A stretch of 64,000 nucleotides of DNA from a virus: positions 1 to 64,000 of IMG/VR virus record IMGVR_UViG_3300028920_000004; one strand, 5' to 3'. Of the stretch, positions 32,666 through 47,684 are shown piece after piece. How positions within the stretch are numbered: position 1 is the first letter of the stretch; each line of letters begins with the position of its first letter. The position numbers were made by a program, and so were the translations under genes. The notes under the pieces were generated by a model that was given only the letters and a program-made list of their open reading frames with translations, did no database searches and was not told the DNA's origin.

Positions 32666-33404
32666 AATAATCACCTTTTTTTAAAGCTTTACATTTAATA
32701 GTTTTTTTTATTATTTCTTTTCTTAATCTTTTTTGATTATATTTAGAATTGGACAATCGTTTAAAAAATTCTTCATAACTTATATTAGGAAACAAAGTTA
32801 AATTACTATCTCCTACCACTATAATCTTACATTTTTCTTCATTCTGAAAATATCCAAAATCTATCATTTGTTTATTAGGACTATTATAATAGGCATCTTT
32901 GCCTATTCCTCTATGATTAATTTCTCCTTGATAATAATGAGTTAAATTCCTATTAAATTTCTTTTTATTTTTATTCTTTTTTAATTTGCCATAATCATAC
33001 CCTAATAAATAAATATTGCCTTTATCTATCAAATAAATAGCTAAAGAAAGTGTAAAAACTCCTGCCAAATTTTTTCTATATACTCCATCTCTTAAATCTC
33101 TATTATAATGACCACTAGCATACAATCTTAAAGTATTTGGATAAGGAACTTCATCTTTACTTCTATATGTTCCAATTAATAAAGGCAAAGAATCAATTTT
33201 ATCATATTCGTGTTCATAAAATCCTTGATTGCTTTGTTTTGTTGGGTTATAATCTACATAAGAAGTAAAAGTAGAATCAAAATGTTTATAAGCATAATTT
33301 ATAGTAATAACAAATTTATCTTTAATCTTATCTTTTAATCCTTGGCTTAATCCATCTTTAATAGAATAACCCCCTCCAATTATAATTACTTCATTGGGTA
33401 TCAT
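32622..33404 (-). CDS. Maf/MptE-like (GT29/GT42-related) ulosonic acid transferase candidate
   Basis: VIIIGGGYSI...VITINYAY...IYLLGYDY...HYY. Confidence 0.6.
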   Translation of the reverse strand: MIPNEVIIIGGGYSIKDGLSQGLKDKIKDKFVITINYAYKHFDSTFTSYVDYNPTKQSNQGFYEHEYDKIDSLPLLIGTYRSKDEVPYPNTLRLYASGHYNRDLRDGVYRKNLAGVFTLSLAIYLIDKGNIYLLGYDYGKLKKNKNKKKFNRNLTHYYQGEINHRGIGKDAYYNSPNKQMIDFGYFQNEEKCKIIVVGDSNLTLFPNISYEEFFKRLSNSKYNQKRLRKEIIKKTIKCKALKKGDYFKQFLDHHNNIDYK

Positions 33405-34183
33405 ATTTTACTCCAAGCTTCACTTATGATTTTTATAATATTTTCCATATCATCTAAAGGTAATTGCGTAGCACTATCAGATATTGCTTTATCTGGTTCG
33501 GGATGAACTTCAATAAATATTCCGTCAACATATCCAGTAGCTATTGCTCCTTTTATCATAGGAATTACAAATTCTCTATTTCCTCCTGATTTTCCTCCTT
33601 TAGATGGAATTTGTTGGCTATGTGTAGCATCGAAAATAATAGGATAATTTCCAAATTTTTTCATAATCATAAAAGACCTAAAATCTACTATAAGGTTATT
33701 ATATCCAAAACAAGTACCCCTTTCCGTTATCATAATATTCTTATTTCCAGTAGCTTCTACCTTCTCTATGACATATTTTATATCCCAAGGAGAAAGAAAT
33801 TGACCCTTTTTTATGTTGACTTTTCGAGCATATCTTCCAATAGTGTGAATTAAGTCTGTTTGTCGGCACAAAAAGGCTGGAATTTGGACAATATCAGCTA
33901 TTAGAGCTACTTTTTTGGCCTCTTCGACTGTATGGGTATCTGTTAAAATCTTAATGCCTTGTGCCTTGATTCTGCTTAAAATTCCTAATCCAGTTTCTAA
34001 TCCTACTCCTCTAAGTGAATTATTAGAGGTTCTATTAGCTTTATCATAGGAAGCTTTAAATATGAACTCTATATTATCATATTTATCGGTAATTTCTTTA
34101 AGCTTTTCTGCGGTTTTTCGTGTGGTGGTTTCATCTTCGATGGCACAATTACCAGCAATTAGAATAAGTTTTTTATTTTTCAT
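33401..34183 (-). CDS. kdsA: 3-deoxy-D-manno-octulosonate 8-phosphate synthase
   Basis: IAGNCAIE, KASYDKANRTS, QIPAFLCRQTDL, KKGQFLSP, ERGTCFGYNNL, DATHS, EVHPEP. Confidence 0.95.
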   Translation of the reverse strand: MKNKKLILIAGNCAIEDETTTRKTAEKLKEITDKYDNIEFIFKASYDKANRTSNNSLRGVGLETGLGILSRIKAQGIKILTDTHTVEEAKKVALIADIVQIPAFLCRQTDLIHTIGRYARKVNIKKGQFLSPWDIKYVIEKVEATGNKNIMITERGTCFGYNNLIVDFRSFMIMKKFGNYPIIFDATHSQQIPSKGGKSGGNREFVIPMIKGAIATGYVDGIFIEVHPEPDKAISDSATQLPLDDMENIIKIISEAWSKI

Positions 34184-34193
34184 TTGCTATCCT

Positions 34194-34595
34194 TTATAAT
34201 TCTAACATTCCTTTCTTCTTCATTTCTGGTTCAGTATATTCTTTCCCTTTTATAACTTTCCCTCCTATAGATTCTCTATTAATATCATTAGGGTCTATTT
34301 TACCCTTTTCTACAAAGGCTAGTTCTACCATTATACTATCTTTTACCGCAAAAAATCTATGTTTGACTGGAGGACGGACTTCAAATATATCTCCTGGTTT
34401 TAAAACTTTTGACCCTCTTTCCGTTTCTATTCTTACCGCACCTTTAATAACTGCAAAACGATTTATTTTTTTACTATGGGTATGGGTCGAACAAAAATAA
34501 TTTTTCTTAACATTTAGTAGGTCTATCTCTGAAGTTCTGGTAAGAAGCAATCTTTGTCTAGTTCCCCAAATTTTGAATACGCTACTATCGTCCAT
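34194..34595 (-). CDS. Cupin-domain protein (sugar isomerase-like)
   Basis: KIWG...CSTHTH..K...G...LKPGD..V.P..KHRF. Confidence 0.75.
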   Translation of the reverse strand: MDDSSVFKIWGTRQRLLLTRTSEIDLLNVKKNYFCSTHTHSKKINRFAVIKGAVRIETERGSKVLKPGDIFEVRPPVKHRFFAVKDSIMVELAFVEKGKIDPNDINRESIGGKVIKGKEYTEPEMKKKGMLEL

Positions 34596-34598
34596 GAA

Positions 34599-34757
34599 TT
34601 ATTCCTCCTCTGATAATATCTTAGTTCTGTCCTTAATTACTTTTAGAGAATCTTTACCTCTTTTTCTAACCACATAATCGTAATCTTCTATCTCATCTTC
34701 TAATACCTTTTCTCTTTTATCCAAAACTAACATCTTAACATTTTTAAGGATTCTCAT
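34599..34757 (-). CDS. Small hypothetical protein, 52 aa (not in ORF track)
   Basis: MRILKNVKMLVLDKREKVLEDEIEDY...; fills the gap between genes. Confidence 0.45.
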   Translation of the reverse strand: MRILKNVKMLVLDKREKVLEDEIEDYDYVVRKRGKDSLKVIKDRTKILSEEE

Positions 34758-35712
34758 GAGTTTCTAATACCCTTTCTGTTTGGTTAATAAAGTTTTTAAT
34801 ATCTTCTAATTTAATCGCTACTGCAAGAGAAGGATATTTTTCTACATCTTGAAAAATAAATCCTTCTACATTATATATAATACCTACAACCACTCCTACT
34901 ATTTGTCCTTGTCTATTTACTACCATTCCTCCAGAATTACCAGGAAAGGTTGGAGCACTTATAAGCATGTAATAGTTATAACTATCATTATATTTTCTTT
35001 TTATATAATTTGATACTATTCCTCGTTGTATGGTATAATGGAAACAATAAGGATGCCCTACAGTATATATTTCAGACCCTTTAGCTGGTATTTTTTTAGA
35101 TATATTAATAGCTGATACCTTTTGAATAGGTTTTTTTAGTCTTATAATAGATAAATCTAAATTATCAGCTTTAAAAATATTAGAATTTTCTATTTCAAAA
35201 AATTCTTGAATATCGTCATTTAAATTTACCACTACTCTATATTTATCAGAATTTTTAACCACATGTTTTGCGGTTAAAATCCATATATAATTTTCATCTA
35301 TTTGATATATTGTTCCTGTACCTCCTACTTTTCCGCATATAATTTCTACTGTAGCTTTTTGTAAATCTATAAAACTTGGAGTTTTTACATACTCATCTAT
35401 TATGTTGTCATATATTATCTGTTGTATGCTTACTTCATTTAACATCTCTCTATTAGTAGATATTAAACTATCTACTATCTTTATCTTTTTATTTATTTTT
35501 TGAAAATTATTATCAGATTTTTCATCTACATTTTTAATCTTCTTCTTTTCTTTGACTAAATGATTTTCCATCATCCTTATCCTATCACCTAAATGCTTAT
35601 TAATATTTGTTACATTTTCTATAAATATTCCTCCCATAATTAAAACCCCTACCAAAATTCCTATAAATCCTACTATTACCAATTTCTTCATTTTACTCTC
35701 ACTTCCTTTCAT
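34744..35712 (-). CDS. Membrane-anchored trypsin-like (S1/HtrA-type) serine protease
   Basis: N-terminal TM, LTAKHV, DLSII, GNSGG triad motifs. Confidence 0.9.
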   Translation of the reverse strand: MKGSESKMKKLVIVGFIGILVGVLIMGGIFIENVTNINKHLGDRIRMMENHLVKEKKKIKNVDEKSDNNFQKINKKIKIVDSLISTNREMLNEVSIQQIIYDNIIDEYVKTPSFIDLQKATVEIICGKVGGTGTIYQIDENYIWILTAKHVVKNSDKYRVVVNLNDDIQEFFEIENSNIFKADNLDLSIIRLKKPIQKVSAINISKKIPAKGSEIYTVGHPYCFHYTIQRGIVSNYIKRKYNDSYNYYMLISAPTFPGNSGGMVVNRQGQIVGVVVGIIYNVEGFIFQDVEKYPSLAVAIKLEDIKNFINQTERVLETHENP

Positions 35713-36206
35713 ATTTTAAGCCAATCCCAATTCCTAAAATATTCTTTAAGAAAAGTATTGACATTTTTATGGTAATTATTATCTGAAATCAAAAAATCAG
35801 TATCAAAAAAATGCCACTGTTGTTTATACCAAAATACACAAATACAATGCCCTCCTTGATTATCATTGTGCATTAAATATAAATCGCTTGGAATATTAAG
35901 TTCTTGTAATAATGCTTTAGATAAAATAGCAAAATCTTCACAGTCTCCATATTTAAATTCTATAGTTTCTAAAGGAGTTTGCCAAAAATCATATTTATAG
36001 ACTAAACTTTCGGATTTATATGTTATATTGGTTATTAACCATATTTTTATATCTTCAGGTGTTTTGATATTATTTTCAGATATAATATGTTGTATTTTAT
36101 ATCTATTTCCAGATTCAAAATATTTTATTACTTTGTCATAATGAGGATTATTAGATAATAACATAATCATCATATATGCCAAAAGTATTTTATTATAAAA
36201 TTTCAT
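35709..36206 (-). CDS. Transglutaminase-like cysteine peptidase (BTLCP)
   Basis: DFWQTPLET...GDCEDFA...HCICV...FD. Confidence 0.85.
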   Translation of the reverse strand: MKFYNKILLAYMMIMLLSNNPHYDKVIKYFESGNRYKIQHIISENNIKTPEDIKIWLITNITYKSESLVYKYDFWQTPLETIEFKYGDCEDFAILSKALLQELNIPSDLYLMHNDNQGGHCICVFWYKQQWHFFDTDFLISDNNYHKNVNTFLKEYFRNWDWLKI

Positions 36207-36207
36207 A

Positions 36208-37083
36208 CTAATCCCCCATAACTTTCCTTAATCTTTTATTTGTTTTCTTCATTTTACAGTTCCAATAATTAGTAAAAACTTTTTTCATATCTCTAGTAGC
36301 CACTACTAATTGTTTCAAATTATATTTATCTTTAGCCAATGTTTTAAATTTTTTTAACCCTCTTTTTCTATATTTTTCATATTCTTTTGGTTTATATTCT
36401 ATATATTTACCAGAAATATCAATATTATAAAAAGATTTCCAATTTTTATTTTTAACTCTATATGCCCAATCTATATGTTCAGCCAATTTTAAATTTTCAT
36501 CCCATTTAATATCTATAAGCATTTTAGTTTTTGCTATAAAAAAATTTCTATGAATGTCTACTGGTTGGAACATATTTCCTTCAAATATTAGATAAGGTCT
36601 TTTTGGACAATCCAATTTAAAATGTTTATTTGGGATTAATTCAATATCTCCTTCCCAAGGTACTCTTCCATTTATATCGAATCCGATAGTACCATATTTT
36701 TCATTACTATCTAAAAATCTTATAATATTATTAATATCATATTTATCAGTAAACAATAAAGAATCTGCACTTATCCAACAATATTCATATCCTTTTTCTT
36801 TAGCTTTTTTAACTAAAAAGTTTCTAGCATAACTTAATCCACAATCAAAAGGTAAATTATAATAAGTTATACCATCTCTAAGTTGTCCGTACCCATAATC
36901 TGTAATATTCATACCAAAATTAGAAAATCCTTGTAATTTATCATTATCAGTTTTATAACTTTGATTTCCTACAAAGATATGATAATTCGGATTCCAATTA
37001 TCTAATATAGATTGGACAGATTTAATTAATAAGTCTTCTCTCAAAAATGTAGTTATAATTATCGCTGTTTTATTTTTTGTCAT
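36208..37083 (-). CDS. Glycosyltransferase family 2
   Basis: IIITTFLR, PFDCGLSYARN, WDENLKLAEH. Confidence 0.85.
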   Translation of the reverse strand: MTKNKTAIIITTFLREDLLIKSVQSILDNWNPNYHIFVGNQSYKTDNDKLQGFSNFGMNITDYGYGQLRDGITYYNLPFDCGLSYARNFLVKKAKEKGYEYCWISADSLLFTDKYDINNIIRFLDSNEKYGTIGFDINGRVPWEGDIELIPNKHFKLDCPKRPYLIFEGNMFQPVDIHRNFFIAKTKMLIDIKWDENLKLAEHIDWAYRVKNKNWKSFYNIDISGKYIEYKPKEYEKYRKRGLKKFKTLAKDKYNLKQLVVATRDMKKVFTNYWNCKMKKTNKRLRKVMGD

Positions 37084-37498
37084 AATAAACCTCTAAAATA
37101 GTCCTATATACTAACATATTAGGTAAATAATTATTAAAAATTTCAGCATCTTCTCCGTTAAATATTTTACTTAATGCTCCTGCTACTCCTGCACTCCTAC
37201 TTATACCTGCTTCACATTGACAAATAACTAAATTAATATTATTCTTATATTTGTTTATAAAATTAAGAATATTTTTAGCATCTTCTTGTGTGAATAATTT
37301 TACTTTTATGTCAGAATTAGGCATATGTAAACCATCTAAATCATGAAAATCTAACCAAAGTATATCTAAACAATTTGCTTGTGAGGCTATCTTTCCTAAT
37401 TCTATAGGATATTTTGGACTTCTTATAGAAATTATTATATGAGGTTTATTTTCTTGATAATTTTTTATTTCTCTTTCACTCATTACTAAAAATTTCAT
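37070..37498 (-). CDS. CX5R protein-tyrosine/dual-specificity phosphatase-like protein
   Basis: CEAGISRS, FHD, PN..VY. Confidence 0.85.
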   Translation of the reverse strand: MKFLVMSEREIKNYQENKPHIIISIRSPKYPIELGKIASQANCLDILWLDFHDLDGLHMPNSDIKVKLFTQEDAKNILNFINKYKNNINLVICQCEAGISRSAGVAGALSKIFNGEDAEIFNNYLPNMLVYRTILEVYYDKK

Positions 37499-37507
37499 AA
37501 TATTTCC

Positions 37508-37705
37508 TTAATATTGTATAGGGCTTCGAGCCAATTCTTTTATATCTTTTTTTCTACAATGTGGACATCTTACTTTCCCTGTTTTTCCATTAGGTCTTGA
37601 CCATCTTCCATTTTCTAATAAAATAGTTCCTGTTTTAAAAAGTCTAGTAAATTCTTTATTACAATTATTACACCTATACTTAACTAAAAATTTTTTATTT
37701 TTCAT
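37508..37705 (-). CDS. Zinc-ribbon protein
   Basis: CNNC ... CPHC. Confidence 0.7.
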   Translation of the reverse strand: MKNKKFLVKYRCNNCNKEFTRLFKTGTILLENGRWSRPNGKTGKVRCPHCRKKDIKELARSPIQY

Positions 37706-37708
37706 AGT

Positions 37709-38287
37709 TTACTCCTTATATCCATATTTTATTGCCATTCCTCTTATCATATCTGTAAAAACTGGACTAATTTTATATAAATCTTCCCAAATTAATTTTC
37801 TATGGATTCTCATATTAGCCCTACTTACTATTGGTCTTTTTTTATTTTTTATTCCTAATTCTTTGCACCATTTATTCCATACTTTAGGAAGTTCTTCTAT
37901 CTTATATCTCCAAGAAGCTTTAGATTCTATAACCAAATTCCAACAATACCATGACCGCATACAATTATAAATACTTTGATTTCTATGTTTTAAAGGGTCA
38001 TCAAAAGGCACATATTTATTTATATATTCAAAACTTTGATTCCAAAGAGTAGTAGAAGAAGCAATAACATTTAAAGGATGTCTTACTTGATGAATTATTT
38101 TATCAAAATTGCATTTAATAATATTCTCAGGGGAAGGTTTAGGAAACTCTCCATCCACACAATGCTTCCAAGAAACTGTATATTTATGCCCACTTCTTTC
38201 AAACATTGAATCTTCTCCTAAAGCTCTAAGAAGTTTATAAGTATACATAGTGGCTGACCTAGGATGTCCTGTAATAAGATATTTCAT
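37709..38287 (-). CDS. Sulfotransferase-like protein
   Basis: 5'-PSB loop ITGHPRSAT; 3'-PB QVRHPL..IAS. Confidence 0.75.
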   Translation of the reverse strand: MKYLITGHPRSATMYTYKLLRALGEDSMFERSGHKYTVSWKHCVDGEFPKPSPENIIKCNFDKIIHQVRHPLNVIASSTTLWNQSFEYINKYVPFDDPLKHRNQSIYNCMRSWYCWNLVIESKASWRYKIEELPKVWNKWCKELGIKNKKRPIVSRANMRIHRKLIWEDLYKISPVFTDMIRGMAIKYGYKE

Positions 38288-38721
38288 TATTTCCCTTCCT
38301 TGTTTATTTTCATTATACGTTCCACTTCTTCAATTAATTCTTCTGCACTTCTATAATTATGTTTATAATGAAAATTAATAGCTTTATCATCAAATATAAT
38401 ATCAAAATAAGGTTTAAATCTACTATCACATAAATTAGGGTCTCTTGGAGGTTGTCTATTTATAGCATGATATTTAAAATTATTATCTTTTAACCATTTT
38501 TTTAATTTAGGAGTACACATCCTACCAGTAAAAAGACCTATCCAATATCCTTTATCATAATAATGCTTCATAACATTTCTTATAGAAGCTACAGGACTTC
38601 CTAATTTATCAAACTCCCAAGGTCTAGTATAAGTAGCTATAACAGAATCAAAGTCAAACATTAGATAGCCTTTATATTGTAACATTTTATTCCTCCAAAT
38701 AGGCTTCCCATTTAGTTCCAA
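38287..38721 (-). CDS. HAD-family phosphatase
   Basis: FDFDSVI, FTGR, KP, FDDKA. Confidence 0.8.
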   Translation of the reverse strand: MELNGKPIWRNKMLQYKGYLMFDFDSVIATYTRPWEFDKLGSPVASIRNVMKHYYDKGYWIGLFTGRMCTPKLKKWLKDNNFKYHAINRQPPRDPNLCDSRFKPYFDIIFDDKAINFHYKHNYRSAEELIEEVERIMKINKEGK

Positions 38722-39358
38722 TTAATTTTTTCTTGATATAATTATAATTAATTATTAGTTTTTCTAAAGATTCTTTATTTTGTTTTTTAGTTACTGGTTT
38801 TAAATTTCTAACTTTAACTCCTAAAAATTTTTGTATCTTTTTTAATTCTTTGCTTAAATCTTTACATAAATCTTCGTAATAAACTGTAATTATAGGATTA
38901 TCTTTGAAATAATTATCTCCCCATTCTTCATTATTCTTTATTCCATTAATACGTTGAGCTAAATCTATATAATCTACTTTTATCATTTTTTTGTTAAGAG
39001 AGGTTCTTTTTCTACCTCTTATTAATCTCCACCAACCAGTTTTACACGCAATAAGATGAGATACTACTGTTCTTAATTTATTTTGTCTTTTAAGATGTAT
39101 AACTGAAATATTTTTACTTTTGCACCATTTCCAAAAATCTGCATTTGCATGGTTATAAAATATTTTAACACCTGTTACTTTATAACGTAAATTTCCCCAT
39201 ATTCTTTTTTTCTCAGAAGCTATAGTTCTATTTCGTCTTTTTAATTTTTTATGGTCAAAGGTTTCATTATAACACCTTATATCAGAATGTTTATTTAAAG
39301 CTGATTGTATTATAGTAGAACCTGTTCTTTCTCTTGCTAATATAATAAATTTCTTCAT
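38687..39358 (-). CDS. Stf0-family sulfotransferase
   Basis: ARERTGST, VIHLKRQNKLRTVVS, YYEDL, KQN...I.NY. Confidence 0.85.
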   Translation of the reverse strand: MKKFIILARERTGSTIIQSALNKHSDIRCYNETFDHKKLKRRNRTIASEKKRIWGNLRYKVTGVKIFYNHANADFWKWCKSKNISVIHLKRQNKLRTVVSHLIACKTGWWRLIRGRKRTSLNKKMIKVDYIDLAQRINGIKNNEEWGDNYFKDNPIITVYYEDLCKDLSKELKKIQKFLGVKVRNLKPVTKKQNKESLEKLIINYNYIKKKLIGTKWEAYLEE

Positions 39359-40533
39359 TATTTATCCCTTTTTATTATAGTTAGAACATCTTCATATCCT
39401 TGTTTTAATAAATAATCTACTACAGGAAAAGATACTAATACCTCTAAATGGTTCTTATTAAAAATTTTAGTATTTTCTGGCATATTTTTATATGAAATAT
39501 TTTCTCCTATTTTTTCTTTAGAATATTTTGGATTATCAACTGCTACTTCTAAACGAGGGGTTTCTAAATCTCCATATACCACCCATCTATGACAAGTTTC
39601 TCCTAATAAGCAAATATATTTATTATATTTTTGTAACTCTTTAATCAACATTAAATTCTTTTTTGTGTAAACTGCTTTTTGAATAGTATCATCTTTTGAG
39701 GTTTCTATTTCAATTTTAAAATTTTTAGATTTAAGTTCTCTGAATTTATGCTCTGATACTTTATGTAAATCTTTTAAAGTTTTTAACCCCATTTTTTCAA
39801 GATAAATTTTCCAGCTATCTCTTTTATTATCTGTTCTGGTTTTGGCATATTTACTAGTATCATCTTTCATTTGATGATTAACTACTACTGAGGGCACATA
39901 AGTAACTTTCCATTTAGTTTTCTTTAATCTAAAAAAGAAATCATTATGCTCAACCATTTTTAACCTTTCATCCCACATTATATCCTCAAATATTTCTCTT
40001 TTGGCTAAAAAGAAATTTAAAGCTAATTGAGAATAATAATATTTAATATATGGATATTCTTTCGTAGTTTTCCATTCCCGACTTTCTTTATCTATTAAAT
40101 AAAATTGATGATTAATATTATCTAGGTACATATCATAAGTATGAATATCTCTATTATTAACCCTACCTGCTGATATGCCTATATATTTATCTTCATTTAA
40201 AACTTGTTTAAGAGTATTCAAATTTGTCTGTTCATAAAAATCAAAATCATTATCTATTATCAATATATAAGGTTCTGTTGATTGTTTGATTAAAAAATTA
40301 CGAGCAAAAGACAATCCACAATTAAAAGGTAGATTATAAATCTTATGACCTTCTTTTTCTAATTCTTTAAAAAATCCCATTTCTCTAATATTAAATTTGT
40401 CTTGATTACCGACATAAAATCTTATTGTTGTAGGATAATATCTACGAATAGATTTTATTTCTTCTATGGTTTTATTTATCCTAGTAAAAGAAGGTATTAT
40501 AACTGCTATATCTGGAATTTTCTTATAATACAT
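39358..40533 (-). CDS. Glycosyltransferase family 2 with C-terminal extension
   Basis: PFNCGLSFARN, IIDND, WDERLKMVEH. Confidence 0.85.
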   Translation of the reverse strand: MYYKKIPDIAVIIPSFTRINKTIEEIKSIRRYYPTTIRFYVGNQDKFNIREMGFFKELEKEGHKIYNLPFNCGLSFARNFLIKQSTEPYILIIDNDFDFYEQTNLNTLKQVLNEDKYIGISAGRVNNRDIHTYDMYLDNINHQFYLIDKESREWKTTKEYPYIKYYYSQLALNFFLAKREIFEDIMWDERLKMVEHNDFFFRLKKTKWKVTYVPSVVVNHQMKDDTSKYAKTRTDNKRDSWKIYLEKMGLKTLKDLHKVSEHKFRELKSKNFKIEIETSKDDTIQKAVYTKKNLMLIKELQKYNKYICLLGETCHRWVVYGDLETPRLEVAVDNPKYSKEKIGENISYKNMPENTKIFNKNHLEVLVSFPVVDYLLKQGYEDVLTIIKRDK

Positions 40534-41570
40534 TAAATTTCCTTTATTATTATTCTATCTTCATAAGGATGTTGTAAAACTATTCTCTTAATATCTGTAA
40601 ATAAATTCCATTTTTTATGTTTTACATTTTTCAAAATACATTCGCTATAGAAATTATATTTTAAATAATATAAAAATCTTTTAACTTTGTTCATATCAGG
40701 ATATTTAGTAAACATATTTATTATAGCTTCTATATCATATATAGATGATACTTTTTGATTTATATCTTTGAAATTATAAAAAGCTTCTCCTACTATTACA
40801 ACTGGTTTTTTCCACATCATAGCTTGTAAACCAATTCCAGAATTAATGGTCAATATTAAATCAGAATATTCTATCATTGATTTATAATGAAAATTATCTA
40901 CAATTCTCAAATTTTTAGTTTCTTTGTTAATATGATATTTATCTTCTTTTTCTATTGGATGATTCTTTACTAAAAATAACCAAGTAGGATATTCTTGTGC
41001 CAATTTCTTAATCAATATATTAAAATTAGTAGTATTTTCAATCCAATTACTCCATAAAAGAGTAACAGTATCATCATGAACTTGTAAAGGAACAAAAATA
41101 ATTCTATTATATTTATTTAGATTTATATTTAACATATCACAAAAAAGCCCAAAAGAAGGTCTATTATTTTTTTGAGTTTCTAATGAAGTATTGTCTTTTT
41201 TAAAATTATCAATATATTGATTTATTTTTTCTTTTTGAACTTCTGTTAAAAGATGATTCCATCTACTTTCATCATAAGAAGAACTATCTACCAAAAATCC
41301 ATTTTTATCCATAAATACAGTATTAGGCAAAGCCCCTCTTTCTATAATATAGACTGGATGATTAATTTTTCTAAGATATTCATAAAGTTCAAATTTCCAT
41401 TTATTTCTGTCAGTAACTAAATATCCATAAGGATTCCATAGAAGAACAGGATTTTCTGGAGAAATATTATCACCTGCTCTAAGACTTTTTTTAGAGATAT
41501 TTAAATGTTTTCTAAGCAATTTTACACAAGGATGATTAAAATCTGGAGTTAAAAATTTAAAAGTATTCAT
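40533..41570 (-). CDS. KpsS/KpsC-like (GT107) beta-Kdo transferase
   Basis: IERGALP, FVPLQVHDD (QxxxD), KNHP, TINSGIGLQAM..KPV..G.AFY. Confidence 0.8.
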   Translation of the reverse strand: MNTFKFLTPDFNHPCVKLLRKHLNISKKSLRAGDNISPENPVLLWNPYGYLVTDRNKWKFELYEYLRKINHPVYIIERGALPNTVFMDKNGFLVDSSSYDESRWNHLLTEVQKEKINQYIDNFKKDNTSLETQKNNRPSFGLFCDMLNINLNKYNRIIFVPLQVHDDTVTLLWSNWIENTTNFNILIKKLAQEYPTWLFLVKNHPIEKEDKYHINKETKNLRIVDNFHYKSMIEYSDLILTINSGIGLQAMMWKKPVVIVGEAFYNFKDINQKVSSIYDIEAIINMFTKYPDMNKVKRFLYYLKYNFYSECILKNVKHKKWNLFTDIKRIVLQHPYEDRIIIKEI

Positions 41571-42223
41571 TATATTTCCTTTGGATAATTAAAAGTCTTA
41601 AAATCTTCTTTATACCAAGCTATGATAGTTGATTTTTTCATTTCGTTATTATACAATTCTTTATAATTTTTGTTTTTAGATTCTCTAATTTTAGGTAATT
41701 CTTTTATAATTATATTTGCATTTCTAAACGTCAATCTTAATCCATAATTAAAATCTAATTCAAACTTAATAATTTTATTTATTTTAAATTCTTCTACAAT
41801 ATGACTTTGAATATAAGAATGAGCATCTTTATTGTAAATTCCTCTCGGCAAATAAGTATGTAAAAATTTTAAAAAACTAATACCTTCTTCCCAATCTTTC
41901 CTATATATTCCATAATTGGCTATTGTAGGAACTTTTTTTCCTCTAAATTTTTCTATTTTTTCAGGAGTTGACTGAATTTTATCAAGATATAAAGAAGCAA
42001 TTCTGGTATAGGGATTTCTCACAACTATAAATTTTTTATAATCTGAAGGAATATCTTTAGCATTTATTAATAAATGCCTGGTAGAATCATGAATGTTATT
42101 TTCTTTTATTTCTAATCCCATACTATTTGCTATAATAAATTTAATAGTAGAACTACCAGCTTTTCCATTTACAATATATGCTAATTTACTATTAGGTATT
42201 AATATTGCTTTTATAGGTAACAT
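41570..42223 (-). CDS. Carbohydrate sulfotransferase (Sulfotransfer_2 type)
   Basis: KAGSSTIK, VRNPYTRIASLY, H...Q, Y..DF..FNY. Confidence 0.85.
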   Translation of the reverse strand: MLPIKAILIPNSKLAYIVNGKAGSSTIKFIIANSMGLEIKENNIHDSTRHLLINAKDIPSDYKKFIVVRNPYTRIASLYLDKIQSTPEKIEKFRGKKVPTIANYGIYRKDWEEGISFLKFLHTYLPRGIYNKDAHSYIQSHIVEEFKINKIIKFELDFNYGLRLTFRNANIIIKELPKIRESKNKNYKELYNNEMKKSTIIAWYKEDFKTFNYPKEI

Positions 42224-42633
42224 TATATGATTTTTCCTTTAAAATAAATAGATTCTAAATTTTTATCTGAAGAAATTATTTTTCGTCTTAAAAGTTCTTC
42301 CTTTAATTTTAGCATCCCATAATTTTTTCCTATTTTTTTAATTTTCTTTATTTTAGTTGTTTTTCCTATTTTTGTATTTACATTATCTACTTTAAAAGAT
42401 AATTGAGTATTTTTATTTATTCTATTTTTAAGTGTTTTAAGCTTATGTTTTAATAATAAAATTCGAACTTCATAATTATCAAAAGAAGGAATTTCAAAAT
42501 AATTAACATATAAATTTTTTATTGGCTTTCTAAATATGTCAATACTTTCTACATAACCTATAACCTTTCTTCTATAAATCAATTCGCATATTCTTATATC
42601 TTCATCTATATCTGCTCTTTTATATCTTCTCAT
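42223..42633 (-). CDS. Hypothetical protein
   Basis: Translationally coupled ORF. Confidence 0.5.
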   Translation of the reverse strand: MRRYKRADIDEDIRICELIYRRKVIGYVESIDIFRKPIKNLYVNYFEIPSFDNYEVRILLLKHKLKTLKNRINKNTQLSFKVDNVNTKIGKTTKIKKIKKIGKNYGMLKLKEELLRRKIISSDKNLESIYFKGKII

Positions 42634-42634
42634 T

Positions 42635-43414
42635 TTAATTCCTTTCTTTTAATTGTCCATTATGATTTACTATATAAAATTTATTTACTTTCCAATTTAT
42701 CTTAAAATATTTTAAATGTCTATTTCTTTTTCTTAATTTAGCATATTCAGAAGAAGGTAATTTATGATTGTGTAATATTTTCATATCTGGACAATGACAT
42801 ATTCTTTGTTCATGAAGTTTACACTTTAAGAAATAATCAGCATGTTCGCCTCCAGAAATTTTTGTATCTTCATTCCAAGAATAAAGCAAAGCTTTAGTAG
42901 CTATCCAAAAATTAGGAACATAATCACAATAATAAAATTTAGTTTCTGGAGTTTCTTCCCATTTTTTACCTACATATTCTATGGGTATTCTTATAAATAA
43001 ATTATATTCTGGTTCATATATAAATATACCTTCCCATTCTTGAACTTTTCCATTAGGTCTTGTAATTTTACCACCTACTATATCTGCTACCCCTCTTTTT
43101 AATAAAGATTTTCCTATTTTTAAACTATCATCTTGAAATATAAAATCATCTTCCACAATAACAATATATTTTTGCTTAACTTTATCCAAAAGAAAATTTC
43201 TAGCATATGGAAGACCGCAATCAAAAGGAACTTTATAATAATTTACAAAATTTCTTTCATATAATTCAGTATCTATCTCTTTATTTTGGTCAGCGACATA
43301 TATATGAATATCAGGATAAAATTTACTAATACTTTCTATACATTCCTTTATTGCTTTAGGTCTTAATATTGTAGTTAAAGTTATTGCAGTATCTTTCATT
43401 TTAATCCTCCTCAA
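42635..43414 (-). CDS. Glycosyltransferase family 2
   Basis: TTILRP, PFDCGLPYARN, VEDD, EHADYF. Confidence 0.85.
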   Translation of the reverse strand: MRRIKMKDTAITLTTILRPKAIKECIESISKFYPDIHIYVADQNKEIDTELYERNFVNYYKVPFDCGLPYARNFLLDKVKQKYIVIVEDDFIFQDDSLKIGKSLLKRGVADIVGGKITRPNGKVQEWEGIFIYEPEYNLFIRIPIEYVGKKWEETPETKFYYCDYVPNFWIATKALLYSWNEDTKISGGEHADYFLKCKLHEQRICHCPDMKILHNHKLPSSEYAKLRKRNRHLKYFKINWKVNKFYIVNHNGQLKERN

Positions 43415-44057
43415 ACCAATTCCAAGATTTCATATCTCCTTTAAAATTAGGTTTAAAATAAGGGTCATCTGGAAAATAATCTTTAAGGGTTTCTATATCA
43501 TACCATCCAGTTGTTAATTTAGGTAATTTTTTATTTTTTCTTTTCTTTACAAAACCTACGATATTATATCTTATTCTTTTAAATCTGCCATTTCTTACAT
43601 CAAACCCTGTTAATATTAAATTATACATCAAACTTCCAATATTCCAACCTGTAGAAATATGTCCTCCTACTATATTGTTTTTATATGGAGGTACTATCAC
43701 AAAAAATATACCATTATCATTTAAAAGATTATATATTTTATTCAAAAATATTCCAGTATCTTGTATATGTTCCATAACATGAGAAGCGAGAATGGCATCA
43801 AATTTTTTATTAAATTTGTAAGTCATAAAATCGCCTTTAATAAAATGATAGTTAGGGTGGTTATAATTAAAATGCTTAGTAATATCTATAGAATAAAGTT
43901 CTTTATTATTTTTTGTAAAAAATTTAGTAATATCTGTATGTTTACCAGTGCCTATATCTAAAATACTGTTAAAATTATAAGTAAGAATTTTATTAAAAAT
44001 TTCTATCATATCTCTTTTTTTTATATTCTTTATATTTGACATCATAATTCCTTCCAT
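43401..44057 (-). CDS. Class I SAM-dependent methyltransferase
   Basis: ILDIGTG, FDAILASHVMEH, IVPP. Confidence 0.85.
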   Translation of the reverse strand: MEGIMMSNIKNIKKRDMIEIFNKILTYNFNSILDIGTGKHTDITKFFTKNNKELYSIDITKHFNYNHPNYHFIKGDFMTYKFNKKFDAILASHVMEHIQDTGIFLNKIYNLLNDNGIFFVIVPPYKNNIVGGHISTGWNIGSLMYNLILTGFDVRNGRFKRIRYNIVGFVKKRKNKKLPKLTTGWYDIETLKDYFPDDPYFKPNFKGDMKSWNWFEED

Positions 44058-44155
44058 ATTAATCCACTTCCATACTTCTGCAAATAATTAAAGAATTCTA
44101 TTTATATAATTTCCATTTGATAAAGATTTTTTAATACTTACCCAATAATTTTTCA

Positions 44156-44683
44156 TCATATTATCTTATTATCCTCTAAATATTTTATTACTTTATTTGT
44201 AGATTCTTCTATAGTTTCTGTTTCAGTATCACATATAATTTCAGGATTTTTAGGGGCTTCATATGGGTCATCAAATCCAGTAAAGCCTTTAATTTTACCT
44301 TTTAATGCTTTTTTCCACATTCCTTTAACATCTCTTTTTATACATTCTTTTACAGAGGCTTTGACAAAAACTTCGACAAAATTTGTAACATTATTTCTTA
44401 TATTCTCTCTTGTTTTTGCATAAGGACTTACAAATGAAGCAATTACTACTACTCCATTTCTTGATAAAAGTTTAGATACAAAATTTATTCTATTTATATT
44501 TTTATCTCTATCCTCTTTAGAAAATCCCAAATCATTACTTAATTTTCCTTTTCTTACTATATCCCCATCTAATCGTTCTACTCTTTTTCCTCTGTTATAT
44601 AGTTCTTTAGCCAATTCATCTGCTATTGAACTTTTTCCTGAACAAGGAATTCCAGTAAACCAAACTACACATCCTTTTTTCAT
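44156..44683 (-). CDS. cysC: Adenylyl-sulfate (APS) kinase
   Basis: WFTGIPCSGKS, LDGD, DLGFSKEDR, SFVSP, RDVKG, FTGFDDPYEAP. Confidence 0.95.
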   Translation of the reverse strand: MKKGCVVWFTGIPCSGKSSIADELAKELYNRGKRVERLDGDIVRKGKLSNDLGFSKEDRDKNINRINFVSKLLSRNGVVVIASFVSPYAKTRENIRNNVTNFVEVFVKASVKECIKRDVKGMWKKALKGKIKGFTGFDDPYEAPKNPEIICDTETETIEESTNKVIKYLEDNKII

Positions 44684-44699
44684 AAAAGGTCTCCTTAAA

Positions 44700-45647
44700 T
44701 TATATTTTATTTATTATAGTAGCAATTAGATATACAATAGAAAATCCCAAAATTGGAGACATTATCCAAGTTAAAAAACATTTTTTAATAGTTTTTATTC
44801 CTAATTTCTTTATACCTTTTCCTCTATTAGCTACCCCAAATCCAAAAACTGCAAAAGAATTTAATTGTACTAAAGATTGAGGAAGACCTATCAAAGATGC
44901 ACTAATTAATAAACTACCTGTTACTAAACTTATAATACCTGCCGATATTAAATCTAATTGTGTAACTTTTTTTCCTATAGACTGTAAATTTCCTTTGCCT
45001 AAAACAAATCCTCCTATTCCAAAAAAAGGAGCAAGTATAAAAGTCGCTAATTTACTTGTCATAATTTGTGCTCCTGCAAAAACACCTGAAGCATTAGCTA
45101 CATTATTAGACCCTATGCTAAAAGCAGTATAACAACTTGTAAGTATATCCCAAAATTTAATAGAATTATGTTTAAAGTCTTTTATTTTTGGATAAATAAA
45201 TTTACCACATAAAAAAGTAATTAAAAAAGCAGAAAAAGGTAACACTATCCATAAAGGAATCATTCTTTGAAAAATTTCCCATTTAACTGCATTATGATAA
45301 GCTCCATACCCTACAATACTAAAAACTGTAATTTGACTTGTAGAGGCTGGTATTTTAAATAAATTAGCTAAAAATAAAGCAATAGTAGTTCCAGTAAAAA
45401 TGATTAATGCACTTTTTATGTTCAATAATTCTGGATTTATTAATCCTTTACTGATTACTTTCACTACTCTAAATCCTAATAAATAAGCCCCTAATAATAC
45501 AAATATTGCAAATAAAATAGAAGCTTTTTTTCTTGATATTATCCCTCCTCCATATTCTGCTGAAAAAGTAGGAGCAATACCAGACCCTCCCATATTAACT
45601 GCAAATAAAATTCCTAAAAATATTAAACCTATTACTAATAAATTCAT
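44700..45647 (-). CDS. PiT-family anion permease, CysP (sulfate) type
   Basis: Multi-TM; N-terminal NMGGSG..(S)A.YG.G resembles B. subtilis CysP NIGASG rather than PitA; second signature GSNNVANA; PASTSQ. Confidence 0.8.
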   Translation of the reverse strand: MNLLVIGLIFLGILFAVNMGGSGIAPTFSAEYGGGIISRKKASILFAIFVLLGAYLLGFRVVKVISKGLINPELLNIKSALIIFTGTTIALFLANLFKIPASTSQITVFSIVGYGAYHNAVKWEIFQRMIPLWIVLPFSAFLITFLCGKFIYPKIKDFKHNSIKFWDILTSCYTAFSIGSNNVANASGVFAGAQIMTSKLATFILAPFFGIGGFVLGKGNLQSIGKKVTQLDLISAGIISLVTGSLLISASLIGLPQSLVQLNSFAVFGFGVANRGKGIKKLGIKTIKKCFLTWIMSPILGFSIVYLIATIINKI

Positions 45648-45664
45648 AAATTCTCCATTATAAT

Positions 45665-46303
45665 TTAAAGTTTTTTTATTTTCGGAAAAATTTCTAAAGC
45701 CAATTTAAGAATCATATATGGACTATAATGATTCATGTTTAATAAATATTTTTTTATATTTTGCTTATCCATTAATATAGTAGGATTAAGAAACTCAGTA
45801 TTTAAATTATTATGACAATATTCATCTAAAGTTTGTATCATTTTTGTTCTTGAAGGTTTATTGTATATATTATGATTACTCACAAACAATATAGGTTTAT
45901 TATCTAACAATTTATGAATTTTTTTTAATTTGGCTACATAATTATCAGAATAAACTTTTTTATATTTAGTATGTTTATAAAATTTAGGAAAAGGAGATAA
46001 ATAATAACCATGTTCGCACAAATAATTAGTAACTCCGCTAATCTCTATTATATATTTATCTATTTTATTAATAGGAATAGTTATTTTTTTTGTTTTAATA
46101 CATTCTAAATTTCCACTCCGTTTATTTATAATATCCTTATGATTAGGTCTAATACCTTTTAAAATTTCTATAGCTTGAATAATTTGTTCTAACGTATGCA
46201 AATGCGGTAAAATCATATATAATTCCATAGAAGTATCTTTACATCGTCTATATACTCTGGTTGGATTTTTTACTCTGCAACTTCCAATAGTTAATATTTT
46301 CAT
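45665..46303 (-). CDS. Hypothetical protein, possibly SGNH-like glycan-modifying enzyme
   Basis: N-terminal IGSCR, IEIS, C-terminal NHYS. Confidence 0.45.
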   Translation of the reverse strand: MKILTIGSCRVKNPTRVYRRCKDTSMELYMILPHLHTLEQIIQAIEILKGIRPNHKDIINKRSGNLECIKTKKITIPINKIDKYIIEISGVTNYLCEHGYYLSPFPKFYKHTKYKKVYSDNYVAKLKKIHKLLDNKPILFVSNHNIYNKPSRTKMIQTLDEYCHNNLNTEFLNPTILMDKQNIKKYLLNMNHYSPYMILKLALEIFPKIKKL

Positions 46304-46944
46304 TAATTCTTTTCATCCTCTATATTAAAAGGTATTACTAAATTTGCTAAAGATTTGCTCTGGCATACACTATTATATTCTCTTTCCACTACATATTTCC
46401 TAAATTTATTTTCGGGATTTTCTTTTCCTCTATTAGCTCTAAATTTAAAAGTATCTTCAGGATTTCCATCTAGATAAACCCCATAATCAAATAAATTACC
46501 ATATAAAGCATATAACCCTTCTACTATTAAAAGGTCAATATTTTTAGAGTTACAAATAGAAAATTCAATACTATCTATATACATATGTATTCTTTGAATA
46601 TATAATTTCTTTTCATTATTTTTAAAATTCTTTAATACTTTATTAAATTTCTCCCACATTATTTCTTCTTTACCTATTATATCAGTTTCTTTTCTAACTT
46701 TATTTCTTATATGCCAATTAGTCTTATAATAATCATCTAGATGTAATACCTTATTTTTAATATTATATTTTTTATATAACTGTTCTTGAATAACATAAGC
46801 ACATTCTGTTTTTCCAGTTCCGCTTACTCCTGTAATAGCTAATATAAATTTACTGTCTTTTTTATATTTTTTAAGAACTTCCGCTAAAATAATTTCTGCT
46901 TTTTTTTCATGCAAAGGTAATATATTTACTCTATCTCCAATCAT
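46303..46944 (-). CDS. Uridine kinase/PRK-like P-loop kinase
   Basis: GVSGTGKT, LHLDDYY, IVEGLYA. Confidence 0.75.
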   Translation of the reverse strand: MIGDRVNILPLHEKKAEIILAEVLKKYKKDSKFILAITGVSGTGKTECAYVIQEQLYKKYNIKNKVLHLDDYYKTNWHIRNKVRKETDIIGKEEIMWEKFNKVLKNFKNNEKKLYIQRIHMYIDSIEFSICNSKNIDLLIVEGLYALYGNLFDYGVYLDGNPEDTFKFRANRGKENPENKFRKYVVEREYNSVCQSKSLANLVIPFNIEDEKN

Positions 46945-46958
46945 CTTATCCTCACTTT

Positions 46959-47114
46959 TTAGACAAATTCATATTTTCCATTACCTACATATTTTCTTTC
47001 ATATTTTTTTTGACAAAAAGGACAATTAAATTTACCTTCACCTATCATTTTAACCACAAATATATGTCCACATTCACAATTTATAGTTATAGTATTATAT
47101 CTTTTATTTTCCAT
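46959..47114 (-). CDS. Small zinc-ribbon protein, 51 aa (not in ORF track)
   Basis: CECG ... CPFC. Confidence 0.6.
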   Translation of the reverse strand: MENKRYNTITINCECGHIFVVKMIGEGKFNCPFCQKKYERKYVGNGKYEFV

Positions 47115-47466
47115 TATTTTTTCTCCTTATTTCGGTAGCACTAATTGATTCTGTTTCTTTATCCAATTTAATTTCATTTATGCCCCAACCAACTTTTCTT
47201 CCATGGCAAACTTCTTTAATATCTGGAAGAGTAACATATTTAACCCTTCCGCTTTTAATTTCTTCCCTAAATTCTTTTCTTATCATTTCAACTCTTTCTC
47301 TAACAGTATAAGGATTTTTATCATCTATTTTAGTATCTCTTATTCCTATACAAACTTTTCCATTTTTATTTAAAACAGTTCTTATTAATTGTATATGTCC
47401 AGCGTGAAGCGGTTGCCATCTCCCAATAAATAAACTATATTCTCCTGTAAAATTATTATTAGACAT
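47104..47466 (-). CDS. Small HIGH-motif nucleotidyltransferase (candidate minimal sulfate adenylyltransferase)
   Basis: FIGRWQPLHAGH, NPY...ER, HGRKVG, ISATEIR. Confidence 0.8.
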   Translation of the reverse strand: MSNNNFTGEYSLFIGRWQPLHAGHIQLIRTVLNKNGKVCIGIRDTKIDDKNPYTVRERVEMIRKEFREEIKSGRVKYVTLPDIKEVCHGRKVGWGINEIKLDKETESISATEIRRKNNGK

Positions 47467-47468
47467 AA

Positions 47469-47684
47469 TTAAAATCCTTTCTTAGTTCCTTTTCTTAAAT
47501 CTAATATTATAGTTGAAAAATAATAATAGTCTTCTTCAAAATGTTTTTTAGCATGTTCGATTGAAAAATTTCTTAATTCTTTAAGTGCTAATAATTGTGC
47601 TTCTTCTGTAGCCTCATATTTTATGATAAATACTTCTCCACAACCTGTACAAGTTCTAATTACTAAATTCATATATTTTTCCAT
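47469..47684 (-). CDS. Hypothetical protein
   Basis: CTGC ... H...H. Confidence 0.55.
   Translation of the reverse strand: MEKYMNLVIRTCTGCGEVFIIKYEATEEAQLLALKELRNFSIEHAKKHFEEDYYYFSTIILDLRKGTKKGF

Follow-up and report, generated by a model that had tools for sequence, protein, structure and literature searches.

PAPS (3′-phosphoadenosine 5′-phosphosulfate) is the universal sulfate donor for sulfotransferases, and in some bacteria extra sulfate-activation genes are dedicated to a glycoconjugate sulfotransferase, as with rhizobial NodPQ and NodH or mycobacterial CysDNC and Stf0. These systems are cellular, possess a CysD/CysN-type sulfurylase and are not known to have a dedicated permease. Here we describe a gene cassette on the - strand of a 64,000-nt stretch of viral DNA, referred to herein as the window (positions 1 to 64,000 of IMG/VR record IMGVR_UViG_3300028920_000004). 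The cassette spans positions 37709-47466, and brings together an APS (adenosine 5′-phosphosulfate) kinase gene, cysC, a PiT-family permease gene, sulfotransferase and glycosyltransferase (GT) genes, and a gene for a 120-aa nucleotidyltransferase of the HIGH type, termed NT120. The source phage is recorded as one contig of 95,764 bp that bears a terminal repeat of 115 bp and is rated 100% complete; the window is its first 64 kb. We regard it as probable that the cassette forms a self-contained phage pipeline for the sulfation of a glycan. As in the cellular systems, the theme is PAPS-dependent sulfation, and the sulfotransferase at 38687-39358 matches the Stf0 family, as in mycobacteria; here, however, the system is phage-borne, has its own permease and begins with a non-canonical enzyme.

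The Bacillus subtilis operon cysH-cysP-sat-cysC (Marietou et al., PMC5840216), like the phage cassette, places a PiT permease with a Gly/Asn signature beside sulfate-activation genes, including cysC. The B. subtilis operon feeds reduction via cysH and uses Sat, whereas the phage cassette has no reductase and no Sat, and instead carries three sulfotransferase genes, one of them only probable. The phage permease is also ~40 aa shorter than that of the B. subtilis CysP system, and scores under the NCBIfam equivalog cut-off.

With regard to sulfate activation itself, PAPS synthases and Sat-CysC proteins (PAPSS1, 1x6v; Aquifex, 2gks; Sat-CysC fusions from the candidate phyla radiation, CPR) share with the phage pair the combination of a HIGH-fold adenylyltransferase and an APS kinase for two ATP-dependent steps, often fused and in either order. 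Sat, however, has a catalytic domain of ~200 aa followed by a PUA-like domain, whilst NT120 proteins are of 105-125 aa, give no PF01747 match and are nearer to PPAT/NMNAT (Z ~10) than to Sat (Z 6-7.7). Indeed, archaeal-type NMNAT/NadM and PPAT (1f9a, 2qjo, 4nah) provide the best sequence and fold matches, with HxGH and ISxTxxR in common, and PPAT with dephospho-CoA kinase represents the same chemistry as the NT120-kinase pair on a different acceptor. NT120 differs from these in being without ~40-50 residues of the acceptor-binding part, and in having APS kinase as its conserved partner. A further likeness is to HldE/GmhB (ADP-heptose) and to AfhE/AfhF of phage HY126 (UDP-arabinose), which also unite a kinase, a small HAD phosphatase and a nucleotidyltransferase, include kinase-nucleotidyltransferase fusions, and in AfhF contain a distant relative of the cassette HAD. 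Their kinases are of the ribokinase or another type, AfhE has a MurU-like fold, and there is no association with sulfotransferases.

In phages, cysC and cysH have been treated as auxiliary metabolic genes (PMC10914622; bioRxiv 10.1101/2021.01.05.425418), with cysC found on phages, and more often on those with larger genomes. It is usually described as an assimilation gene (PMC10914622), and the function of phage sulfotransferases has been stated to be unclear (PMC10580990). In this cassette, and in most of the phage loci examined, cysC is instead accompanied by NT120 and by genes for sulfotransferases and glycosyltransferases, and cysH is missing. Literature searches returned no publication that describes fusions of NT120 with APS kinase, nor any that describes a sulfation pathway in phages.

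APS kinase and a candidate ATP sulfurylase

The phage CysC is a canonical APS kinase by family, with scores well over the cut-offs (Table 1) and 63-72% identity to CysC of related phages. Its 175-aa translation contains all of the expected motifs (P-loop, DGDxxR, LGFS, DRxxNIxR and SPY..R), and conversion of APS to PAPS is assumed.

For NT120, both the HxGH and the C-terminal ISxTxxR motifs are present, and the family, which is of 104-125 aa throughout, has invariant residues at I14, G15, R16, H21, H24, R43, P52, R58, P81, G89, R90, G93, S109 and R114. The AlphaFold2 (AF2) model (pLDDT, i.e. predicted local distance difference test, of 88) has a HIGH-nucleotidyltransferase fold. The partners of NT120 link it to APS synthesis. 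A search for longer relatives gave at least 91 NT120-APS-kinase fusion proteins of 212-297 aa, with the kinase first in 64 and the nucleotidyltransferase first in 27; fusions in both domain orders are independent events. NT120 also lies immediately beside CysC in 12 of the 19 IMG/VR loci that hold a CysC relative. Amongst cellular species genomes with NT120, of which there are 44 (mostly Patescibacteria, together with Pelagibacteraceae single-cell genomes, Acidobacteriota and archaeal-labelled metagenome-assembled genomes, MAGs), a CysC-like kinase is adjacent or fused in 39. Sat is missing from 40 of these 44 and a full-length PAPS_reduct protein is found in only 5, whilst Sulfotransfer_3 genes are present in 26, compared with 2 of 14 control genomes. 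The fused kinases (n=92) keep the P-loop, DGDxxR, GFS and DR/NxxR blocks that are conserved in canonical APS kinases.

The relationship of NT120 to Sat was assessed in two CPR classes, comprising 385 genomes (134 from the first and 251 sampled from the second). Exactly six genomes of the first class have an APS kinase, which is fused to Sat in three and to NT120 in three; sulfotransferases occur in all six, as opposed to 15 of the 128 others. In the second class, a strong APS kinase is found in 15 genomes, with Sat in 6, with NT120 in 5 and with both in none. Pooled, the 21 genomes with a strong APS kinase contain Sat in nine cases, NT120 in eight and both in none, for which the naive probability, ignoring phylogeny, is ~0.002.

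A number of observations weigh against NT120 as the source of APS. No match to PF01747 (Sat) was obtained at E <= 1 anywhere in the complete genome, with controls responding, and NT120 therefore stands outside the Sat family. Its fold is nearest to PPAT and archaeal NMNAT (Z ~10), and Sat ranks lower than either, whether from Thermus (1v47, Z 7.7, 22% identity over 111 aligned residues) or from yeast (Z 6.1). The motif order considered in this comparison with Sat was HxxH ... GR ... IS(G/A)TxxR, and H21, H24, G89, R90, S109 and R114 are invariant in the NT120 family. The lid segment of APS kinase is missing in about two-thirds of the fused kinases, and the genomes used for the displacement comparison are MAGs, with statistics that take no account of phylogeny. 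In addition, 15 small CPR genomes (the class of G018, including G055, G056 and G059) have Sulfotransfer_3 matches but no APS kinase, Sat or NT120; either these are incomplete MAGs, or PAPS is obtained elsewhere. Finally, in G179, the complete 189.6-kb IMG/VR record of locus L010, cysC has a membrane extension and lies close to sulfotransferases, yet NT120 and Sat are both missing; as complete phages of this kind exist, host APS can apparently suffice for some phages. Set against fusion, adjacency and displacement of Sat, these points leave synthesis of APS by NT120 a reasonably likely proposition. The protein is not a member of the Sat family, yet very probably works like an ATP sulfurylase, and its small size would fit an acceptor as small as sulfate. 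The first-pass annotation of this DNA had proposed that the phage is independent of host PAPS, which would be true only if NT120 makes APS, a point for which the comparative support is strong.

Several other functions for NT120 were considered and set aside. Salvage of NAD by an NadR-like NMNAT and a ribosylnicotinamide kinase is ruled out, as NT120 falls far under the NMNAT/PPAT cut-offs of NCBIfam (45.9 vs 181 and 56 vs 127 bits for the NMN adenylyltransferase models TIGR01527/NF002243, and 25 vs 103 bits) and covers only the N-terminal half of the NMNAT models, at positions 2-79; its partner, moreover, is APS kinase, and the PRK-like kinase of the cassette has no homologue in the fetched loci. 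A PPAT/dephospho-CoA kinase-like salvage of CoA by the NT120-kinase pair is disfavoured by the association with sulfotransferases and by the retained APS-kinase motifs. A frameshifted, longer NT120 is likewise out, given that a separate 51-aa zinc-ribbon open reading frame (ORF) follows the stop codon and that the family maintains its length. The presence of KdsA downstream, with no KdsB-type gene, raised the possibility that NT120 and the HAD are KdsB/KdsC analogues serving the KpsS-like enzyme; this was rejected as the principal explanation because KdsA is missing from related phages in which NT120 and the HAD are present, and most of the NT120 carriers found are CPR bacteria, which, to our knowledge, make no Kdo (3-deoxy-D-manno-oct-2-ulosonic acid).

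The strongest rival is a nucleotide-sugar route, in which host Sat/CysDN supplies APS, and NT120, the HAD and a kinase act as an HldE/GmhB- or AfhE/AfhF-like module, leaving only CysC, the sulfotransferases and perhaps the permease for sulfation. In such a module, the sugar bisphosphate formed by the kinase would be trimmed to a sugar-1-phosphate by the HAD, from which the HIGH nucleotidyltransferase would produce an NDP-sugar (nucleoside diphosphate sugar) for the glycosyltransferases of the cassette. A trio of kinase, HAD and HIGH nucleotidyltransferase is indeed also the architecture of ADP-heptose-type sugar activation. HldC, a PF01467 heptose-1-phosphate adenylyltransferase, appears in the fold list of NT120 at Z 6.0, HAD-NT120 fusions occur, and some complete phages carry cysC alone. 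To this can be added that the closest solved relative of the HAD, AfhF, is a sugar-bisphosphate phosphatase, with GmhB and KdsC also matched, and that the PRK-like kinase, two genes downstream of NT120, has sugar kinases as its structural kin. Nevertheless, NT120 is universally partnered by a domain of the APS-kinase family, with its conserved motifs, rather than by a sugar kinase; the HAD and the PRK-like kinase are missing from most NT120 loci; NT120 and Sat are mutually exclusive as partners of APS kinase; and sulfotransferases are the commonest specific neighbours. We thus consider the nucleotide-sugar route unlikely, and NT120 as a producer of APS the preferred explanation.

The P-loop kinase that the first-pass annotation had included in the sulfate chain probably does not belong there. 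It is of the PRK/Udk type; amongst its structural neighbours in the Atlas are the sucrose-kinase domain of AgaSK and kinases that form fusions with sucrose phosphorylase or synthase, and no homologue was found in any fetched viral or cellular locus. It is probably a sugar or glycan kinase, outside PAPS synthesis.

Recurrence in other phages

The same module is found in related and unrelated phages, where CysC, NT120, sulfotransferases and glycosyltransferases recur together, in agreement with the dedicated sulfation supply suggested at first pass. In the complete 104-kb syntenic relative G177 (47% identity for PolB, 44% for SbcC and 35-67% for many tail genes), the corresponding position, flanked by sbcC and the convergent tail genes, is taken up by a variable island that contains CysC (71%), a KpsS-like gene, a 260-aa ORF and NT120 (48%). 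A second syntenic relative, L004, has HAD, NT120 and CysC, followed in the same run by a tandem array of three sulfotransferases and by a KpsS-like gene, beside the same tail genes. Across 12 non-redundant phage loci, the families most often found at up to 5 kb from cysC, after the kinase and NT120, are Sulfotransfer_3 (7 ORFs), GT1 (7), Sulfotransfer_1 (5), GT2 (4) and methyltransferases (4). The family of the 38687-39358 sulfotransferase is present in the fetched flanks of 6 of the 12 non-redundant viral loci and of 22 of the 44 cellular loci; an iterated profile seeded with this protein found 40 ORFs in the fetched loci, beside NT120/CysC.

Two contigs from archaeal-labelled MAGs, L020 (Hodarchaeota) and L025 (Thermoplasmatales), hold a CysC and NT120 pair with 51-60% identity to that of the phage, accompanied in L020 by the HAD. 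Both also hold homologues of the tail genes of the phage (window 26543-27202 and the tape-measure gene), and probably represent viral or proviral sequence that binning has placed with archaeal genomes.

Sulfate uptake

The permease belongs to the PiT family, and both of its halves are matched in alignment to its best solved relative, the phosphate transporter TmPiT (6l85). From this alignment, the first GAND motif is replaced by GGSG (Asp to Gly) and GANDVAN by GSNNVAN (Asp to Asn), and the Gly and Asn at these positions are invariant across 22 homologues of the subfamily. Marietou et al., citing Aguilar-Barajas et al. 2011, give the GANDVAN aspartates as essential for phosphate transport, with Gly and Asn in their place in B. 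subtilis CysP, the one sulfate permease to have been characterised within the PiT family (PMC5840216). The gene lies 16 nt upstream of cysC.

There remains a case for an ordinary phosphate transporter, i.e. an acquisition auxiliary gene such as cyanophage pstS that simply ended up in a variable island and has nothing to do with sulfation. The PiT family is mainly one of phosphate transporters, as is the best solved relative of the protein. The score against the NCBIfam model NF053884 (SulfPermCysPBac) misses the equivalog cut-off of 400, and is not discriminating either, because NF053884 was the sole PiT model in NCBIfam to respond, for the permease and for 22 of 22 homologues. Furthermore, the PiT gene is missing from the closest sequenced relatives of the phage, which have the same module. 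Opposed to this, both phosphate-essential aspartates are changed to Gly and Asn exactly as in CysP, the gene occupies the position upstream of cysC where relatives have a two-helix extension fused to CysC, and in B. subtilis, too, cysP belongs to one operon with sat and further genes of sulfur metabolism (PMC5840216). A phosphate transporter is, on balance, improbable, and specificity for sulfate fairly probable as judged from these signatures; the protein is CysP-like, not a demonstrated CysP equivalog.

As to its distribution, no relatives of the permease were found in 50,697 GenBank phage records or in two scans of IMG/VR. Homologues with 58-73% identity are found on unannotated metagenome contigs (P0002-P0013), and a separate metagenome scan gave a single weak match. 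As a phage-borne gene, the permease is specific to the window phage.

The CysC proteins of the relatives L001, L003, L004 and L020 have an N-terminal extension of ~70 aa containing two hydrophobic helices. A similar two-helix extension is found in the more distant phage loci L009, L010 and L012, that of L009 matching DUF2061. The extensions lie at L001:5717-5941, L003:9776-10000, L004:945-1133, L020:10333-10566 and L009:9800-10000. The window CysC lacks this element and begins directly at the P-loop, whilst the permease gene fills the upstream position. Because the permease gene stands where relatives carry the extension, the small membrane domain and the permease may serve the same step, which suggests a role for the two-helix extension in sulfate entry or hand-over.

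Sulfotransferases and glycan enzymes

Three sulfotransferases of different types had been proposed for this cassette at first pass, of which two are upheld by scores above the Pfam cut-offs and the third, at 37709-38287, is only probable. PAPS-site motifs, namely a 5′-phosphosulfate loop and a 3′-phosphate R...S motif, can be located in all three translations: RERTGST and KRQNKLRTVVS in 38687-39358, GKAGSST and RNPYTRIAS in 41570-42223, and GHPRSAT and RHPLNVIAS in 37709-38287. For the last of these, the Pfam match, over the 3′-phosphate-binding region, is below the cut-off, no supporting match came from PDB or BLAST searches, and both facts count against a third enzyme. Comparison by hhalign gave 94% probability over 26 columns, comprising the 5′-phosphosulfate-binding (5′-PSB) loop only, and the ORF is a probable, divergent sulfotransferase.

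The sulfotransferase genes are interleaved with glycosyltransferase genes, and the same operon provides a set of glycan enzymes: three GT2s, a KpsS/C-like gene, a methyltransferase and a TviD_N-like gene. These, along with KdsA just downstream, were omitted from the first-pass annotation. A glycan is quite probable as the acceptor of sulfate. Homologues of the KpsS/C-like protein are found in the related phages L004 (44% identity) and G177 (27%), and no KdsB-type CMP-Kdo synthetase (PF02348) was detected in the complete genome, despite the presence of KdsA and the KpsS/C-like gene. The TviD_N-like protein gave zero matches in the Pfam or NCBIfam copies searched; many of the TviD clusters that it matches in the Atlas are viral, and it is a probable polysaccharide O-acyl/acetyl transferase, as a lead only.

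Profile searches of the complete genome found no Sat, CysD/CysH-type PAPS_reduct, NIR_SIR sulfite reductase or CysQ, and genes for cysteine synthesis were likewise not found. The absence of PAPS reductase and sulfite reductase reported for the window thus extends to the rest of the phage and, since Sat and CysD/CysH are also missing, indicates sulfation rather than assimilation. The conventional view of CysC and sulfate uptake as auxiliary metabolic functions that boost host assimilatory reduction toward cysteine, with incidental sulfotransferases, has the usual literature description of phage cysC in its favour (PMC10914622), but is very improbable and excluded in practice by the gene content of a complete genome that has no cysH, sulfite reductase or cysteine-synthesis genes, that has three sulfotransferase genes (one only probable) in the same operon as cysC, and whose arrangement of sulfotransferases and glycosyltransferases around cysC is repeated across the 12 non-redundant phage loci. 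The first-pass conclusion of a dedicated PAPS supply for glycan sulfation is in this way supported by gene content, interleaved glycosyltransferases, recurrence and the CysP-type signature of the permease.

The HAD phosphatase is a candidate PAP 3′-phosphatase or pyrophosphatase, with a sugar-phosphate phosphatase as the alternative. Homologues begin at Met13 of the ORF, and the true start is therefore probably this residue, at 38685 (~132 aa). Over 49 sequences, D23, D25, K103, D111 and D112 show little or no variation, and both Foldseek (AF2 model, pLDDT 87) and profiles match it to capless HADs. The family is of ~130 aa, with 138 cluster representatives at E <= 1e-3 in a library of 1.84 billion proteins, and its profile matches 9iqw (E 9e-13), 2obb, 1xpj and Pnkp, with GmhB and KdsC also listed. 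Amongst these, 2obb and 1xpj are uncharacterised proteins and Pnkp is a polynucleotide 3′-phosphatase; the nearest, 9iqw, is AfhF of phage HY126, an arabinose-1,5-bisphosphate 5-phosphatase, and a sugar bisphosphate as substrate speaks against a role in sulfation. The HAD is beside NT120 in L004 and L020 and fused to it in L001/L002 and P0241/P0242. Removal of PAP (3′-phosphoadenosine 5′-phosphate) or pyrophosphate (PPi) is favoured here because PAP is a ribose 3′,5′-bisphosphate and the genome is without CysQ, although this is a guess, at roughly even odds with a sugar-phosphate role (such as on Kdo-8-phosphate, given KdsA).

Genome context and gene content

The phage contig carries hallmark genes for a family-B DNA polymerase (PolB), a UvsX-like recombinase, SbcC/SbcD-like nucleases, a tape-measure protein and a baseplate-like protein, and its G+C content is 23-31%. 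PolB has ~24% identity at most to any cultured phage polymerase, from which the lineage is taken to be uncultured, and a megablast search of the cassette against GenBank phages gave zero matches. Structural genes occupy the + strand up to ~32.6 kb, after which every gene is on the - strand. Profile and motif checks placed the PiT permease, CysC, HIGH nucleotidyltransferase, P-loop kinase and HAD where the first-pass annotation had them, on the - strand (Table 1), and the tight operon that it described is borne out by 16 junctions in 37709-47466 with spacings of -35 to +98 nt, 9 of them overlapping. The co-oriented block extends on to 32622, and no gap in it exceeds 148 nt. No terminator-like sites were detected on the - strand within the block in a promoter/terminator scan, which AT-rich DNA renders uninformative. 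The gene arrangement in the cassette is not one of chance.

Table 1. Genes of the sulfation cassette and of the adjoining part of the - strand block
Feature	Position	Strand	Evidence
NT120, HIGH-type nucleotidyltransferase, 120 aa, candidate minimal ATP sulfurylase	47104..47466	-	PF01467 E 9e-10, 39.4 bits (cut-off 21); TIGR00125 37.9 bits (cut-off 27.7); GRWQPLHAGH ... HGRKVGWG ... ISATEIR
Zinc-ribbon ORF, 51 aa	46959..47114	-	CxC...CxxC pattern; weak zinc-binding Pfam matches; 11-nt overlap with NT120 stop
PRK/uridine-kinase-family P-loop kinase, 213 aa	46303..46944	-	PF00485 E 6e-7; NF005807 46 bits, below cut-off
TviD_N-like protein, SGNH-like fold, 212 aa	45665..46303	-	Atlas feature score 0.95, TM 0.82 to TviD N-terminal domain clusters
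PiT permease, CysP (sulfate) type by signature	44700..45647	-	PF01384 127 bits (cut-off 33.7); NF053884 215 bits, positions 5-315 of 354
APS kinase CysC, 175 aa	44156..44683	-	PF01583 197.7 bits (cut-off 21.1), positions 1-152 of 152; TIGR00455 212.7 bits (cut-off 138.7); NF002059 239 bits
SAM-dependent methyltransferase	43401..44057	-	Methyltransf_23, _11, _31, E 1e-9 to 1e-12
GT2 glycosyltransferase, 259 aa	42635..43414	-	PF00535 E 5e-11
Lys-rich ORF, 136 aa	42223..42633	-	Nothing above noise in family searches
Sulfotransferase, Sulfotransfer_2 type	41570..42223	-	PF03567 E 3.5e-11, 44 bits (cut-off 22), positions 6-252 of 252
KpsS/KpsC-like (Capsule_synth) transferase	40533..41570	-	PF05159 E 1e-15, 58.5 bits (cut-off 20), positions 138-272 of 310
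GT2 glycosyltransferase, 391 aa	39358..40533	-	PF00535 E 3.6e-6, 27.4 bits (cut-off 23.3)
Sulfotransferase, Sulfotransfer_3/_1/Stf0 type	38687..39358	-	PF13469 47, PF00685 39, PF09037 37 bits, each above cut-off
Capless HAD phosphatase, 144-aa ORF	38287..38721	-	DxD, T..R, K, DD motifs intact
Probable divergent third sulfotransferase	37709..38287	-	PF13469 E 0.003, 18.4 bits (cut-off 27); 5′-PSB loop GHPRSAT
Zinc-ribbon ORF, 65 aa	37508..37705	-	Cys pairs
PTP/dual-specificity-phosphatase-like protein, 142 aa	37070..37498	-	CX5R loop CEAGISRS; second phosphatase of glycan operon
KdsA	33401..34183	-	Pfam match
260-aa ORF, conserved in related phages	32622..33404	-	Homologues in L004 (42%) and G177 (37.5%)
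Operon continuation	32622..37705	-	Also GT2, transglutaminase-like protein, trypsin-like protease, cupin

A third zinc-ribbon-like ORF with Cys pairs (71 aa, window 47469-47684) lies beside the cassette. Elsewhere in the window, residues 173-314 and 536-569 of the tape-measure ORF (22111-25677) match PHROGs whose annotations are thymidylate synthase and ribonucleotide reductase, a sign that an element may have been inserted. In G177, the PolB matches (G177:C1:64021-67023) form two blocks ~1.2 kb apart, between which is a segment that resembles the window tape-measure ORF; a related mobile insert may therefore reside in different genes of the two phages.

Proposed pathway and implications

In the pathway that we propose, the cassette would be expressed from the long - strand transcription unit, behind the replication and recombination genes. 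Sulfate would be imported by the CysP-type PiT permease, as its sequence signatures suggest, and adenylylated by NT120 to APS and PPi, a step to which fusion, adjacency and displacement of Sat all point. CysC, by virtue of its family, would phosphorylate APS to PAPS, from which two clear and one probable sulfotransferase, of different subfamilies, would move sulfate to a glycan. The building or modification of this glycan would fall to the interleaved GT2s, together with the transferase of KpsS/C type, the methyltransferase, the PRK-like kinase and the TviD_N-like protein as a probable acyltransferase; KdsA is encoded downstream. By way of a guess, the HAD may clear a product that would otherwise stall the chain, be it PAP or PPi. 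The glycan could serve to mask or remodel the host surface, or else to decorate virions. A broader proposition can be drawn from this, in which NT120 represents a third class of ATP sulfurylase, minimal in size (~110 aa) and descended from an NMNAT/PPAT-like ancestor independently of Sat and CysDN, that completes a phage pipeline from extracellular sulfate to sulfate ester, with the membrane extension of CysC also serving sulfate entry or hand-over; taken as a whole, we view this as evenly balanced between true and false.

If NT120 is an ATP sulfurylase, it would account for a first step of PAPS synthesis that is otherwise missing from many CPR bacteria, some archaeal-labelled contigs and SAR11 cells, and would be a very small enzyme of use for the enzymatic regeneration of PAPS. 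The phage permease offers a simple complementation test of CysP-type PiT specificity and, if specific for sulfate, would make this, as far as could be found, the first virus known to import an inorganic substrate for a modification pathway. The cassette and its relatives indicate that phage cysC mostly feeds sulfotransferases, which changes the meaning of viral-ecology counts of this gene for sulfur cycling and points to sulfated glycans as a surface trait under phage control; should the third class of ATP sulfurylase and the role of the membrane domain prove true, most phage cysC 'auxiliary metabolic genes' would need to be re-read as genes for sulfation, not assimilation.

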